Positions 2,368 to 11,558 are shown, counted from the stretch's first letter. The stretch: DNA of 64,000 nucleotides from GCA_000165345.1 CM000430.1:672001-736000, one strand, 5' to 3'. A program made the numbers and translations. Notes: generated by a model from the letters alone, not told the origin.

Positions 2368-5285
<2,918 letters not shown>

Positions 5286-5546
5286 CAAAATTTGTCTCAA
5301 CCAATTTATCAAAAGAAGTATTCTTCTATATTATTTTGATTCTTAGCAATAGTAATGATAAAATATTCATTTAAATTATTACTTCACTTAAATTAATTTC
5401 ATTAATTACATATTTTTTTAATTAACATCACATTTTTTTATTTCACTAATTGTTTTAATATTTTTATAGTAAAAAAGCAAAAAAAAAACTTTCTCAATTA
5501 CTTGCGTTAATGCTCCTTCCACATAAAATAAATATATTTATACACG

Positions 5547-6134: not shown

Positions 6135-7841
6135 ATGGAGCAAGTTCAAGTAACGCCTTATCTTGACCAGAAGCCAGGAACAAGTGGTCTAAGAAAGAAA
6201 ACCCGTGTATTTATGGAAGGAACTTACTTGGCTAACTTTATTGAATCATACTTCCAATCATTCCCACCTGAAAATTTTGAAGGTGCAACACTTTTGGTAG
6301 CTGGCGATGGTAGATTCTTTCTACCAGAAGCAATACAAATTATTTCCGAAATTGCTGCAGCACATAAAGTTAAAAGGATTTGGACTGGTGTTAATGGCTT
6401 ATGTTCAACACCAGCAGGGAGTGCTATCATAAGAGAAAGAGAAGGCGGTATTGCAGTCGGTGGAATCTTATTAACAGCTTCACACAACCCAGGTGGTATT
6501 GATGAGGACTTTGGAGTTAAATTTAACGGAAAGAATGGTGGCCCAGCTCAAGATTCGGTTACCAATACAATTTTTGAAATTACAAAAAAATTAACATCAT
6601 ATAAGAAGATTTCACTTCCTAAAATTGATTTAAGTAAAATTGGCGTGCAGGAATTAATACCCAATCAATTTACCGTCGAAGTAATAGATACATCTGAAGA
6701 TTGGCTAAAATTAATGAAAAAGATATTTGATTTCCAAAAGATTCAAAATCTACTTAATAGAAAAGATTTTAAAATGGCTTTTGATTCTATGCATGGTGTG
6801 GCTGGACCATATGCAAGAAAACTCTTTGTTGACGAATTTGGATTGCCAGAAAGTTCATTGTTACATTTGGAATCAAAGCCAGATTTTGGAGGGCTTCATC
6901 CTGATCCAAATCTTACTTATGCAAAAGACTTAGTTGAATTAATGAAAGTTAAATCTCCAGAAAAAGTTGATAAAAGCACGCCAGATTTTGGTGCTGCTGG
7001 AGATGGTGACTGTGATAGAAATATGATTTTGGGTAAAGGATTCTTTGTTACCCCTTCAGATTCTGTTGCAATTATTGCATCATATGCGAAAGAAGCAATC
7101 CCATACTTCTCAAAAGGATTGGCTGGTGTCTCAAGATCTATGCCTACTAGTACTTCGCTCAATAATGTAGCAGAAAAGCTCGGAATCCCATGCTATGAGG
7201 TACCAACAGGATGGAAATACTTTGGTAATTTAATGGATGCAAAAATGATTGACATATGTGGTGAAGAATCTTTTGGAACAGGAAGTGACCATATTCGTGA
7301 AAAGGATGGATTATGGGCAGTGTTGGCTTGGTTATCGATTCTAGCCCACAAGAATCCAGACCCAACAAAGCCATTGGTATCTGTTGAGGATATCACTAGG
7401 GAATTCTGGAAAACATATGGAAGAAACTACTACACTAGATTCGATTACGAATCAATTGAAACAGAAAAAGCTGATCAATTCTTTAAACATTTAAATTCTT
7501 TAATGGAAGATCATCAGAAATTAAGAGAAATCATTAAACCATATGGTATTGATATCAAATTAACTGATAACTTTACATATAATGATCCAGTAGATAAATC
7601 TGTCGCAAAAAATCAGGGTTTAAGATTTATCTTTCAGGATAACTCCAGAGTTGTTTTCCGCCTATCAGGTACAGGTTCAGTAGGAGCAACAATTCGAATT
7701 TACATTGAAAAGACTGTGAGTGATCAAACAAAAGTTAATAGCACATCAAACGAAATCCTTGGCGATTTGATTGAGATAGTTGAGAAAAAGATTAAATTAA
7801 AAGAATCGACAGGAAGAGATAGGCCAACTGTTATAACTTAA
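6135..7841 (+). CDS. phosphoglucomutase (alpha-D-phosphohexomutase), upstream cytosolic-type copy
   Basis: It has the active-site loop TASHNPGG and the metal-binding loop DGDCDRNMILG, and the length is PGM-like at 568 aa. There is no signal peptide. Confidence 0.9.
   Translation: MEQVQVTPYLDQKPGTSGLRKKTRVFMEGTYLANFIESYFQSFPPENFEGATLLVAGDGRFFLPEAIQIISEIAAAHKVKRIWTGVNGLCSTPAGSAIIREREGGIAVGGILLTASHNPGGIDEDFGVKFNGKNGGPAQDSVTNTIFEITKKLTSYKKISLPKIDLSKIGVQELIPNQFTVEVIDTSEDWLKLMKKIFDFQKIQNLLNRKDFKMAFDSMHGVAGPYARKLFVDEFGLPESSLLHLESKPDFGGLHPDPNLTYAKDLVELMKVKSPEKVDKSTPDFGAAGDGDCDRNMILGKGFFVTPSDSVAIIASYAKEAIPYFSKGLAGVSRSMPTSTSLNNVAEKLGIPCYEVPTGWKYFGNLMDAKMIDICGEESFGTGSDHIREKDGLWAVLAWLSILAHKNPDPTKPLVSVEDITREFWKTYGRNYYTRFDYESIETEKADQFFKHLNSLMEDHQKLREIIKPYGIDIKLTDNFTYNDPVDKSVAKNQGLRFIFQDNSRVVFRLSGTGSVGATIRIYIEKTVSDQTKVNSTSNEILGDLIEIVEKKIKLKESTGRDRPTVIT
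6174..7530 (+). repeat. near-identical segment of tandem PGM duplication (partner 8397..9752)
   Basis: By direct comparison the two tracts are collinear at an offset of 2223 bp with only scattered mismatches. Identity collapses immediately 3' of the codons for MEDHQ/MEDSQ. Confidence 0.85.
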
Positions 7842-8051
7842 TTTTATGGTAATAAACAGGAAACTTAAAAAAGTATAATTCTAAAGATTTTAATGAATTT
7901 TTAATTTCTTAATGTAATTGTTTACAAAATGATTTAATCTGAACTCGAAAAAAAAAAAAAAAAGACCTCATCTTTCGAGGGTTTGGAAGAGCTAATAACA
8001 TTACCGCAAATTAAGAATTAAAACAACACTTTTACTACTTTTTTTACAAAG

Positions 8052-10064
8052 ATGATGAAAATTTTGAACATACTCTTTTCATTAGTTCTTGTAAGTCAGT
8101 ATGTCAATGCAAACGAAAGTGTGGGGAATTTGAGATATTTGCAGAAAATAAATCTGATCGAACCTACCGATGGTCAAGCAAAGGTAGTTACCTCCCAGGA
8201 TGTTCAAATTAATCAGGGAAGGGCCCTAATTAAGAAGAAAGTGTCCGTAGTAACAAGAAATGTCATTGAAACCGAAACAACTGAGACTTATTATTATTCA
8301 GATAAAGGTCTAGATGCTTGGAGTCCTAATGAAAATGATAATCTATTAGATATGTTAGTTCAAGAAGTTCAAATATCTCCTTATCTTGATCAAAAGCCAG
8401 GAACAAGTGGTCTAAGAAAGAAAACCCGTGTATTTATGGAAGGAACTTACTTGGCTAACTTTATTGAATCATACTTCCAATCATTCCCACCTGAAAATTT
8501 TGAAGGTGCAACACTTTTGGTAGCTGGCGATGGTAGATTCTTTCTACCAGAAGCAATACAAATTATTTCCGAAATTGCTGCAGCACATAAAGTTAAAAGG
8601 ATTTGGACTGGTGTTAACGGTTTATGTTCAACACCAGCAGGGAGTGCTATCATAAGAGAAAGAGAAGGCGGTATTGCAGTCGGTGGAATCTTATTAACAG
8701 CTTCACACAACCCAGGTGGTATTGATGAGGACTTTGGAGTTAAATTTAACGAAAAGAATGGAGGCCCAGCTCAAGATTCGGTCACCAACGCAATTTTTGA
8801 AATTACAAAAAAATTAACATCATATAAGAAGATTTCACTTCCCAAAATTGATTTAAGTAAAATTGGCGTACAGGAATTAATACCCAATCAATTTACCGTC
8901 GAAGTAATAGATACATCTGAAGATTGGCTAAAATTAATGAAAAAGATATTTGATTTCCAAAAGATTCAAAATCTACTTAATAGAAAAGATTTTAAAATGG
9001 TCTTTGATTCTATGCATGGTGTGGCTGGACCATATGCAAGAAAACTCTTTATTGACGAATTTGGATTGCCAGAAAGTTCATTGTTACATTTGGAATCAAA
9101 GCCAGATTTTGGAGGGCTTCATCCTGATCCAAATCTTACTTATGCAAAAGACTTAGTTGAATTAATGAAAGTTAAATCGCCAGAAAAAGTTGATAAAAAC
9201 ACACCAGATTTTGGTGCTGCTGGAGATGGTGACTGTGATAGAAATATGATTTTGGGTAAAGGATTCTTTGTTACCCCTTCAGATTCTGTTGCAATTATTG
9301 CATCATATGCAAAAGAAGCAATCCCATACTTCTCAAAAGGATTGGCTGGTGTCTCAAGATCTATGCCTACTAGTACGTCGCTCAATAATGTAGCAGAAAA
9401 GCTCGGAATCCCATGCTACGAGGTACCAACAGGATGGAAATACTTTGGTAATTTAATGGATGCAAAAATGATTGACATATGTGGTGAAGAATCTTTTGGA
9501 ACAGGAAGTGACCATATTCGTGAAAAGGACGGATTATGGGCAGTGTTGGCTTGGTTATCGATTCTAGCCTACAAGAATCCAGACCCAACAAAATCATTAG
9601 TATCTGTTGAGGATATCACTAGGGAATTCTGGAAAACATATGGAAGAAACTACTACACTAGATTCGATTACGAATCAGTCGAAACAGAAAAAGCTGATCA
9701 ATTCTTTAAACATTTAAATTCTTTAATGGAAGATTCTCAGAAATTAAGAAACTCTCTCCGTTCAAGTGGGTTGAAGGTGAAATTTATGGATAACTTTACA
9801 TATAATGATCCAGTAGATGGTTCAGTTACAAAAAATCAGGGTGTTAGGATTATATTTACGGACGGTTCAAGAATTATTTTTAGAATTTCTGGAACAGGAT
9901 CAGTGGGAGCAACTATTAGGGTATATATGGAGAAGACTGTTAAAAACCCTCAGGAATTTGAAAAAACAACCCAACAAGCTCTAAATCACTTAATTGAGAT
10001 AGTTGAGAAAAAGATCAAATTAAAAGAGATTACTGGTAGAAGCAAGCCTACAGTAATTACTTAA
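8052..10064 (+). CDS. phosphoglucomutase paralog with N-terminal signal peptide and ~105-aa extension (parafusin-like candidate)
   Basis: It has the same TASHNPGG and DGDCDRNM motifs. The N-terminus MMKILNILFSLVLVSQYVNANES is a predicted signal peptide. Nucleotides 8397-9752 are about 98-99% identical to 6174-7530 of the upstream copy. Confidence 0.85.
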   Translation: MMKILNILFSLVLVSQYVNANESVGNLRYLQKINLIEPTDGQAKVVTSQDVQINQGRALIKKKVSVVTRNVIETETTETYYYSDKGLDAWSPNENDNLLDMLVQEVQISPYLDQKPGTSGLRKKTRVFMEGTYLANFIESYFQSFPPENFEGATLLVAGDGRFFLPEAIQIISEIAAAHKVKRIWTGVNGLCSTPAGSAIIREREGGIAVGGILLTASHNPGGIDEDFGVKFNEKNGGPAQDSVTNAIFEITKKLTSYKKISLPKIDLSKIGVQELIPNQFTVEVIDTSEDWLKLMKKIFDFQKIQNLLNRKDFKMVFDSMHGVAGPYARKLFIDEFGLPESSLLHLESKPDFGGLHPDPNLTYAKDLVELMKVKSPEKVDKNTPDFGAAGDGDCDRNMILGKGFFVTPSDSVAIIASYAKEAIPYFSKGLAGVSRSMPTSTSLNNVAEKLGIPCYEVPTGWKYFGNLMDAKMIDICGEESFGTGSDHIREKDGLWAVLAWLSILAYKNPDPTKSLVSVEDITREFWKTYGRNYYTRFDYESVETEKADQFFKHLNSLMEDSQKLRNSLRSSGLKVKFMDNFTYNDPVDGSVTKNQGVRIIFTDGSRIIFRISGTGSVGATIRVYMEKTVKNPQEFEKTTQQALNHLIEIVEKKIKLKEITGRSKPTVIT

Positions 10065-10986: not shown

Positions 10987-11558
10987 GAGACAATTTTTAT
11001 GAAAATATTAAAGTACCGATATAGAGGTTAATTATATAACTGGTAAGATTTTTCTTTTTTTTTTTAATTTAAAAGAATTAGAAAATGTATAAATAAAAAC
11101 CGGGTAAATACAAGAAACATTATTTAAAGTAAATAATACAGCCAAGTATATTATTAAGGGGAAAAGACATAAAGTTAATGTACTTTTATTAAATAAGAAA
11201 ATAATAGTCAAAACCCCGGGATATAATTGTGGAAAAAAAAAACTGAATATAAAAAAATACCAAGGAGGAATAAGCGAAGTAATTGACAAGAAATCATCAT
11301 ATTTGATATAAATCAAGTTGTTTAGATTTTTTTCAATAATACAGTTTAGTATCCACGCATATATATATATATATATAAATATATATAAATATATATGTAC
11401 ATACATTTATGCCAATAGAGAGCCTTACATAGTTATTAAAGAAAATTTTAATTTAACTATACAAATAGAATATTGTTTAAGTTACAAGAACAATATCTAA
11501 TATATAAGAAATTTCATGTAACTATACAAATTAATTTGGGGATTTCTATGAGAAAAAA

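Follow-up and report, generated by a model that had tools for sequence, protein, structure and literature searches.

Tandem phosphoglucomutase genes of Cryptosporidium parvum share a 1.34-kb tract that probably evolves in concert through interlocus gene conversion

The window analyzed here is a 64-kb stretch of C. parvum chromosome 2. The sole long repeat within these 64 kb is a tandem pair of phosphoglucomutase genes, CpPGM1A (cgd2_3260) and CpPGM1B (cgd2_3270). The features of the locus are listed in Table 1. CpPGM1A is a 100% match to the record [quoted passage not shown], and its closest solved structure is that of human PGM1 (E = 3e-176). In CpPGM1B, four Pfam PGM domains occupy residues 114-667. 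Both proteins have the architecture of the PGM1 subfamily (PGM_PMM_I, II and III and the PGM1 C-terminal domain, all above the curated Pfam cut-offs), and the human and rabbit PGM1 structures match them over their full length (E about 1e-176). Both translations also carry the phosphoserine loop TASHNPGG, the metal loop DGDxDR, the sugar loop GEESFG and the phosphate loop R(L/I)SGTGS; these four catalytic or ligand-binding motifs align with human PGM1. Judged by domains and motifs, the two proteins are assigned to the PGM1 subfamily of the alpha-D-phosphohexomutase superfamily.

Table 1. Coordinates of the phosphoglucomutase genes and their segments, counted from the first nucleotide of the window.
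Feature	Position	Strand	Description
CpPGM1A (cgd2_3260) CDS	6135..7841	+	ORF, 568 aa; cytosolic phosphoglucomutase
5' homology edge in A, unhomogenised	6135..6170	+	12 codons; 10/36 mismatches, 72% identity with 8358-8393
Homogenised (putatively gene-converted) tract, A copy	6171..7511	+	codons 13-459; domains I-III and start of domain IV; likelihood fit
Unconverted A-type 3' segment	7512..7841	+	codons 460-568, most of domain IV; 67.3% identity with 9735-10064
A-B intergenic spacer	7842..8051	+	210 nt, with B's own upstream region
CpPGM1B (cgd2_3270) CDS	8052..10064	+	ORF, 670 aa; 100% match to database protein
B-specific N-terminal extension	8052..8357	+	signal peptide and ~80-aa linker; translation starts MMKILNILFSLVLVSQYVNA
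Homogenised (putatively gene-converted) tract, B copy	8394..9734	+	likelihood fit, site patterns, dS
Unconverted B-type 3' segment	9735..10064	+	most of domain IV; 92.6% identity with C. meleagridis B

This pair has been described before. Nie, Yin, Wang, Wang and Zhu 2021 (Pathogens 11:21, PMC8781159) reported cgd2_3260 and cgd2_3270 as ORFs of 1707 and 2013 bp with 91.7% nucleotide identity, separated by a spacer of 210 bases, with conserved active-site residues and with mismatches clustering near the C-terminus. Both enzymes were found to be active; A is cytosolic, and B carries a signal peptide plus a linker. The recombinant enzymes A and B are reported to act as mutases converting glucose-1-phosphate to glucose-6-phosphate, with Km values of 0.17 and 0.13 mM and Vmax values of 7.30 and 2.76 umol/min/mg, respectively (PMC8781159). 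That study reads the pair as one within-genus duplication, and gene conversion, concerted evolution and recombination have 0 occurrences in its text. In the searchable literature, we found no paper reading this PGM pair as a case of concerted evolution.

The alignment of the A and B coding sequences needs no gaps, the offset staying at 2223 nt, and the two are 91.6% identical overall, in line with the published 91.7%. The best two-breakpoint likelihood fit delimits a tract with only 25 mismatches in 1341 nt (98.1% identity), compared with 118 mismatches in the 363 nt of homologous CDS outside it (Fisher p = 1.4e-61). The likelihood gain of this fit was matched by 0 of 200 codon permutations. 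When the A copy of the tract is stretched to 7526, it holds 27 mismatches in 1356 nt. The sequence-only reading had described a sharp-edged near-identical tract of ~1.35 kb with 98-99% identity, and the alignment bears this out. Its limits, 6174-7530 and 8397-9752, are right within a few bases, with the second interval one base short and the final four positions lying in already diverged sequence. The identity of 70-75% that it gave for the termini holds for the 5' part, though this amounts to only 36 nt, and is a little too high for the 3' segment, which is 66.3% identical between A and B at 7527-7841. At the protein level, 40 of the 53 differences between A and B fall in codons 460-568, in agreement with the earlier remark that the C-terminal 100 residues differ at many positions; another 5 lie in codons 1-12 and 8 in codons 13-459. 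The description of the tract as the catalytic core is not strictly correct. The tract spans domains I-III and the initial ~30 residues of domain IV, and the conserved phosphate-binding loop (RLSGTGS in one copy, RISGTGS in the other) sits in the unconverted part.

Homology between the two copies ends with the coding sequences. Searches with blastn (word size 7) and tblastn of the region upstream of A against the B spacer and extension returned nothing past the CDS ends, and the same searches between the two downstream regions revealed no homology past the stop codons. By these comparisons, the duplication boundaries appear to be no longer visible, and the B extension has no visible derivation from the region upstream of A. 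A footprint of GC-biased conversion is absent in C. parvum, where the core GC3 of 0.24 does not exceed that of the C-terminus (0.23-0.27).

The comparison among species that had been proposed as a check on gene conversion gave the pattern of concerted evolution, the core grouping by species and the C-terminus by ortholog. Within a species, the cores of A and B are 98.1% (C. parvum), 97.9% (C. meleagridis) and 94.2% (C. canis) identical, compared with 91.5% between parvum and meleagridis and 77% between parvum and canis. In the final 312 nt, the parvum/meleagridis orthologs are 94.2% (A-A) and 92.6% (B-B) identical, versus 66% for A-B. The nucleotide tree of the core joins A and B of each species with bootstrap values of 100 for C. 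canis, 84 for C. parvum and 83 for C. meleagridis; the corresponding values in the core protein tree are 100, 96 and 100. Site patterns in the core are distributed between species grouping and ortholog grouping as 30:0 in the comparison with C. hominis, 85:1 with C. meleagridis and 248:2 with C. canis. In the final 312 nt, the same ratios are 0:97, 1:77 and 8:33. The short 5' edge at 6135-6170 also groups by ortholog, 9:0 versus C. hominis and 5:0 versus C. meleagridis. The C. hominis A and B sequences used here are short-read contigs from two different samples, and the named C. hominis proteins share the species-specific residues of those contigs. C. andersoni, C. bovis, chipmunk genotype I and further C. 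hominis loci were compared as proteins only.

Synonymous sites follow the same division. The A and B copies of C. parvum have a dS of 0.061 in the core versus 1.45 in the 3' segment, where dN is 0.31; the core values in C. hominis and C. meleagridis are 0.046 and 0.072, and the C-terminal values range over 1.0-1.45. Orthologous cores have a dS of 0.145-0.162 (parvum-hominis) or 0.39-0.44 (parvum-meleagridis), with saturation in the comparison with C. canis. Because the core dS between A and B is lower than that between parvum and hominis orthologs, the homogenisation postdates the split of these two species.

A low core dS of 0.05-0.07 in three species could also be obtained if the genes had been duplicated recently, or the core partially re-duplicated, independently in each species. 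We regard this as very improbable. The gene order, the B signal peptide and linker, the 210-nt spacer and both C-termini are orthologous over C. parvum, C. hominis, C. meleagridis and C. canis. The B C-terminal ortholog clade is supported at 98% in the nucleotide tree and 99% in the protein tree, and the C-terminal site counts given above contradict a recent origin. In addition, the fitted 3' breakpoint lies at alignment position 1377 in both C. parvum and C. hominis, at 1359 in C. meleagridis and at 1332 in C. canis. The boundary is thus common to the four species within about 45 nt, and re-duplication would have had to recreate it four times independently. The site counts by ortholog, the conserved B extension and spacer and the shared synteny show instead that the duplication is older than the speciations.

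The gastric species C. muris, C. andersoni and C. serpentis serve as a control. In their core, A and B are each monophyletic, without homogenisation, and identity between the two C. muris genes stays near 71% along the whole length. Neither the site patterns (14 species-grouping, 8 ortholog-grouping and 16 discordant) nor the C-terminal protein tree settles the orthology of C. muris B with the B gene of the intestinal species. The assemblies of C. ubiquitum, C. felis and C. ryanae show a single A-type gene at the PGM locus, whereas PMC8781159 places the pair in all available genomes; C. bovis and C. xiaoi have one PGM protein each on record.

The C. muris pair is also informative about selective constraint. 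Its unconverted core is less diverged than its C-terminus (27% vs 45% mismatch), and core dN/dS is low throughout, as would be expected if no exchange had occurred and the core were simply under far stronger purifying selection than the C-terminus, possibly at synonymous sites too. By analogy with C. muris, some of the C-terminal divergence is due to weaker protein constraint, and the premise that an old duplicate diverges uniformly fails to that extent. However, the contrast between the segments is only 1.7-fold in C. muris, compared with 17-fold in C. parvum. Constraint cannot give both paralogs 30, 85 or 248 common species-specific substitutions against 0-2 paralog-specific ones, and core synonymous sites vary freely between orthologs, as the dS values for parvum-hominis and parvum-meleagridis show. 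We consider constraint alone to have a negligible chance of accounting for the mosaic.

Nor are the termini free to diverge, as the sequence-only reading had supposed. The C-terminal orthologs have omega values of 0.07-0.19, which show purifying selection on the C-termini of A and of B, two distinct constrained sequences that appear to escape conversion. The 5' edge, for its part, is where homology ends.

The near-identity might also come from an error of assembly or polishing, for example with one copy partly overwritten by the other, and several other Cryptosporidium assemblies do mishandle this locus. The C. tyzzeri UGA55 and C. meleagridis TU1867 assemblies hold a single-copy chimera with the 5' part of A and the 3' part of B (A5'/B3'), which lacks the A-B spacer kept in C. 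hominis and C. meleagridis. The A5'/B3' form also occurs in gene models, and other annotations of the locus contain fused, truncated or "isoform" gene models. Nevertheless, such an artefact is a highly unlikely source of the near-identity in the window. The same A and B proteins have been deposited for C. parvum as EAK88694/EAK88693, QOY42904/QOY42903 and WRK31117/WRK31119, with B also as KAL5370121, and their recurrence in independently deposited annotations argues that the mosaic is no assembly artefact of the window. The mosaic is also found, with species-specific sequence, in C. meleagridis UKMEL1, C. canis and C. hominis. Furthermore, the 25 residual mismatches of the tract are mostly synonymous (17 versus 8 non-synonymous), as in real genes. 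A 568-aa A/B chimera protein labelled C. parvum was considered as a genomic deletion allele in the long-read assemblies and rejected. It is one of three products listed for a single locus tag, alongside normal A and B, and is therefore a transcript model, not a differing genome structure.

Among C. parvum-like assemblies, that of isolate 43IA8 departs from the window sequence at 19 positions over 9.7 kb, 18 of them within the tract. All 18 carry the paralog's base and lie in three contiguous blocks, which are short internal patches of at least 4, 119 and 419 nt and run in both directions. In GCA_048859185.1, the paralog's base is present at 8 of the 9 differences within the PGM genes. These blocks could also have arisen in assembly or polishing, if short reads were assigned to the wrong one of two copies that are 98% identical. 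We infer from such patterns, rather than from a directly observed event, that conversion may be ongoing in C. parvum.

The copies might also have been homogenised by cycles of unequal crossing-over, with contraction to one copy followed by re-expansion. The expected deletion product, A5'/B3', is present in two assemblies and in gene models, and these forms show that the junction arises easily, either in vivo or in silico. However, contraction to A5'/B3' loses the A-type C-terminus, the spacer and the B extension, which re-expansion cannot restore and which are all kept across species. The short internal two-way patches of 43IA8 are typical of non-crossover conversion. Crossing-over cycles therefore seem very unlikely.

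We consider it very probable that the locus reflects an old tandem duplication followed by recurrent interlocus gene conversion of the 1.34-kb tract, that is, concerted evolution. An ancestral PGM1-type phosphoglucomutase would have been duplicated in tandem, after which repeated non-reciprocal copying between the paralogs, probably through homologous repair of DNA breaks in meiosis or mitosis, would have kept the tract near-identical within each species. Because the paralogs are kept near-identical in this way, the tract would evolve as one unit. On the 5' side, conversion would stop where homology ends, since the signal peptide and linker of B lie opposite the promoter region of A. On the 3' side, it would stop at codon 460, beyond which the remaining ~109 codons encode most of domain IV in two different versions, each conserved in its own right. 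Conservation patterns suggest that this edge may be held by selection against hybrids without the isoform-specific C-terminus. The divergence of ~33% may contribute as well, as it would by itself block the formation of heteroduplexes.

A stronger proposal is that the boundary at codon 460 is selected because the last ~109 residues carry isoform-specific properties, and that conversion is still active in C. parvum populations. We put this forward tentatively and think it rather doubtful as a whole. One such property could be the Vmax of B, which is roughly 2.6-fold lower, and the same residues may underlie the association of B with the pellicle and the parasitophorous-vacuole membrane. If this proposal is true, the 4-kb PGM locus would serve as a natural reporter for ectopic homologous recombination in C. 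parvum, a parasite that is not known to possess end-joining repair.

As an instance of gene conversion, the PGM pair is clean but ordinary, and it leaves the general understanding of the process unchanged. Interlocus conversion with "islands of divergence" has a theoretical basis reviewed in PMC3924837, and paralogous copies of GOT1 in Tigriopus (PMC3728101) and of ATP1A1 in Leptodactylus frogs (bioRxiv 10.1101/2020.08.04.234435) are examples of it. In these systems, most of the length is homogenised and a sharply bounded diverged segment groups by ortholog, as in the PGM pair; the islands are read there as selection for paralog-specific function opposing conversion. In contrast, the PGM island takes up a whole end of the gene, its last 109 codons, and not just a few internal sites, and, unlike the islands of GOT1 and ATP1A1, it has no adaptive function yet tied to it. 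Among parasitic protists, concerted evolution of tandem arrays is described for Trypanosoma brucei (PMC1855330) and for Leishmania beta-tubulin (PMC1533823). These arrays likewise consist of tandem paralogs with coding regions homogenised within species and diverging flanks. However, they are multi-copy dosage arrays under polycistronic transcription, whereas there are just two PGM genes, which have their own upstream regions, differ in protein targeting and belong to an extremely compact apicomplexan genome.

Several consequences follow for work on this locus. The published identity of 91.7% does not date the duplication, which is far older than it appears, and whole-gene trees will mispair A with B within each species. 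The near-identity explains why genome projects have mishandled the locus, with effects on copy-number and orthology tables. A and B can be told apart only by the last ~330 nt and by the B N-terminal extension; therefore, primers, guide RNAs, homology arms, peptides and read mapping directed at the core hit both genes. A double-strand break in one PGM copy is likely to be repaired from the other. Finally, the sharply bounded and conserved island of divergence makes domain IV the region in which to search for whatever special role the secreted isoform has.

The tandem genes A (cgd2_3260, CpPGM1A) and B (cgd2_3270, CpPGM1B) lie on chromosome 2 with 210 nt between them, and both have been characterised by Nie et al. 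2021 (PMC8781159). The B protein is 100% identical, and the A protein identical, to entries named 'phosphoglucomutase, tandemly duplicated gene [Cryptosporidium parvum Iowa II]'. Each contains the four Pfam phosphoglucomutase domains and aligns end to end with human PGM1; B has 102 extra N-terminal residues, consisting of a signal peptide and a linker. The pair is the sole long repeat of the 64-kb window. It is bracketed by (TA)n-rich low-complexity stretches at 5247-5316, just 3' of the TPR-repeat gene, and 11336-11399, ~1.3 kb downstream of B, which the repeat finder returned as an 88% inverted repeat and which are probably mere microsatellite sequence.

Table. Coordinates in the window of the phosphoglucomutase genes and of the low-divergence tract
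Feature	Position	Strand	Product	Basis
A ORF	6135-7841	+	568 aa	
B ORF	8052-10064	+	670 aa	
Low-divergence tract, A copy	6171-7511	+		two-breakpoint likelihood fit
Low-divergence tract, B copy	8394-9734	+		two-breakpoint likelihood fit

A and B align with zero gaps at an offset of 2223 nt. Within the tract, whose limits come from a likelihood fit with two breakpoints, 25 of 1341 nt are mismatched (98.1% identity), compared with 118 of 363 nt in the homologous coding sequence beyond it (Fisher p 1.4e-61); none of 200 codon permutations approached the observed likelihood gain. Identity is 72% over the first 36 nt and 66% over the last 315 nt, and no A-B homology is detectable 5' of the A start or 3' of either stop codon. 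The sequence-only reading, which had placed a near-identical tract with diverged ends at 6174-7530 and 8397-9752, was essentially correct in its coordinates and percentages. The proteins differ at 53 amino acids, 40 of them in codons 460-568. Since the exact A and B proteins recur under several independent C. parvum accessions, the mosaic is not specific to this assembly.

The locus was also fetched from C. meleagridis UKMEL1 (L001) and TU1867 (L002), C. tyzzeri (L003), C. canis (L004), C. ubiquitum (L005), C. felis (L006), C. ryanae (L007), C. muris (L008), two more C. parvum-type assemblies (L009, L010) and two C. hominis contigs (L011, L012). In each of them the locus has identical neighbours, with the TPR-repeat gene upstream and one further common gene downstream. 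Over the core, alignment positions 37-1377, the two copies within a species are 98.1% (C. parvum), 97.9% (C. meleagridis) and 94.2% (C. canis) identical, whereas orthologs between species are 91.5% (parvum/meleagridis) and ~77% (parvum/canis) identical. The last 312 nt show the reverse pattern, with A-A at 94.2%, B-B at 92.6% and A-B at only 66%. Sites grouping by species versus by ortholog number 30:0 in the core and 0:97 in the last 312 nt for C. parvum against C. hominis, 85:1 and 1:77 against C. meleagridis, and 248:2 and 8:33 against C. canis. Bootstrapped neighbour-joining trees of the core and the C-terminal segment conflict in the same sense. Between A and B of C. parvum, synonymous divergence rises from 0.061 in the core to 1.45 in the C-terminal segment; the core figure lies below that of C. 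parvum-C. hominis orthologs (0.145-0.162), which indicates that homogenisation postdates the split of these species. This result is the one that the sequence-only reading had set as confirmation of concerted evolution.

Between C. parvum and C. meleagridis, the synonymous divergence of the homogenised core (6171-7511 vs L001) is 0.39-0.44, higher than that of the PGM C-terminus (0.23) and of the two genes adjoining the pair (0.20 and 0.30). This excess may come from ancestral paralog divergence added to species divergence, or from mutagenic repair.

Weaker protein constraint explains part of the C-terminal divergence, as the gastric species illustrate. In C. muris, C. andersoni and C. serpentis, A and B form separate clades in core and C-terminus alike, and C. 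muris A and B are ~71% identical along their whole length, with mismatches of 27% and 45% on the two sides of the boundary. Constraint, however, accounts for this 1.7-fold contrast only, not for the 17-fold contrast of C. parvum.

The fit puts the 3' breakpoint at alignment position 1377 for both C. parvum and C. hominis, at 1359 for C. meleagridis and at 1332 for C. canis; the boundary is therefore old and stable. It corresponds to codon 460, ~30 residues into the C-terminal domain (domain IV, residues 430-565 in A) and away from the domain border. Both C-terminal segments keep the phosphate-binding loop, their dN/dS among orthologs is 0.07-0.19, and they are not decaying. At the 5' boundary homology itself ends, so that conversion tracts have no anchor there. 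The C. canis core contains lower-identity patches (68-77% in three 60-nt windows, at alignment positions 421-480, 781-840 and 1321-1380), as expected for a patchwork of separate conversion events. C. canis A (L004 3050-4756) has a one-codon insertion at codon 460, exactly at the 3' conversion boundary, and the 568-aa protein P0137, from a third isolate of this species, shows a mixed A/B pattern.

Repeated non-reciprocal gene conversion between the tandem paralogs during homologous repair best explains these patterns. Cryptosporidium is not known to have end-joining repair, a lack that would favour repair from the paralog. Unequal crossing-over cannot be the sole homogenising process. Its deletion product, joining A 5' to B 3', lacks the A-type C-terminus, the spacer and the B extension, yet all three are kept as orthologs across species. 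Under gene conversion, the 3' edge may be maintained by selection for isoform-specific C-termini, and C-terminal divergence may itself reinforce it, because 66% identity would be insufficient for heteroduplex. Maintenance of this kind follows the published model in which duplicated genes that undergo conversion retain an 'island of divergence' (PMC3924837, PMC3728101).

Exchange may still be going on within C. parvum. Over 9.7 kb, isolate 43IA8 and the window disagree at 19 positions, 18 of them within the tract, and at all 18 the isolate carries the other copy's base, in three contiguous blocks (two in A, one in B); the intergenic flank (2.3 kb compared) is otherwise identical. In GCA_048859185.1, eight of nine differences inside the PGM genes are the other copy's base. 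These differences are no more than suggestive of segregating tracts and ongoing conversion, and short reads mis-assigned during polishing could give the same pattern.

Several assemblies and gene models depart from the intact pair. C. meleagridis TU1867 (L002 5001-6704; MDA-amplified DNA, ONT reads) and C. tyzzeri UGA55 (L003 5001-6704) each have one PGM gene, an A-5'/B-3' chimera with the A upstream and B downstream flanks and without the spacer and signal-peptide region. The switch lies at alignment positions 906-954 in the former and 1434-1465, within the normally diverged part, in the latter; either assembly collapse or true deletion via unequal crossing-over could be responsible. In two annotations of C. 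parvum, a single locus tag covers three products (QOY42902/3/4 = CPATCC_000589; WRK31117/8/9): normal A (P0010), normal B (P0001) and a 568-aa A/B chimera (P0133) from which precisely one repeat unit of 2223 nt is missing. It probably arose as an artefact, by template switching or by alignment of transcript evidence over the repeat, or else represents a rare deletion allele. C. hominis B models (P0004, P0121, P0122, P0123) measure 570, 607, 634 and 657 aa across assemblies, with N-termini truncated or spliced out and one internal deletion, and disagree at positions where one variant has the A state. In chipmunk genotype I (P0134), A and B are fused in one 1178-aa model.

In contrast to the published claim of a pair in all available genomes, a single PGM gene, of A type at its C-terminus, occupies the locus in the assemblies of C. 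ubiquitum, C. felis and C. ryanae, and for C. bovis and C. xiaoi only one PGM protein each is on record. Downstream of PGM in C. ubiquitum (L005 6913-7271), a weak frameshifted match to the B signal peptide and linker (E ~5e-4) suggests loss of B by decay.

Nie et al. 2021 (PMC8781159) had already published the duplication, the signal peptide, the 91.7% identity and the concentration of mismatches near the C-terminal end, which they used for epitopes and primers; neither gene conversion nor concerted evolution figures in their paper. Full-text literature searches found no paper ascribing either to this locus. Concerted evolution by gene conversion is a textbook phenomenon. The finding is therefore of modest general interest, though of some practical use in Cryptosporidium genomics and in the design of reagents.
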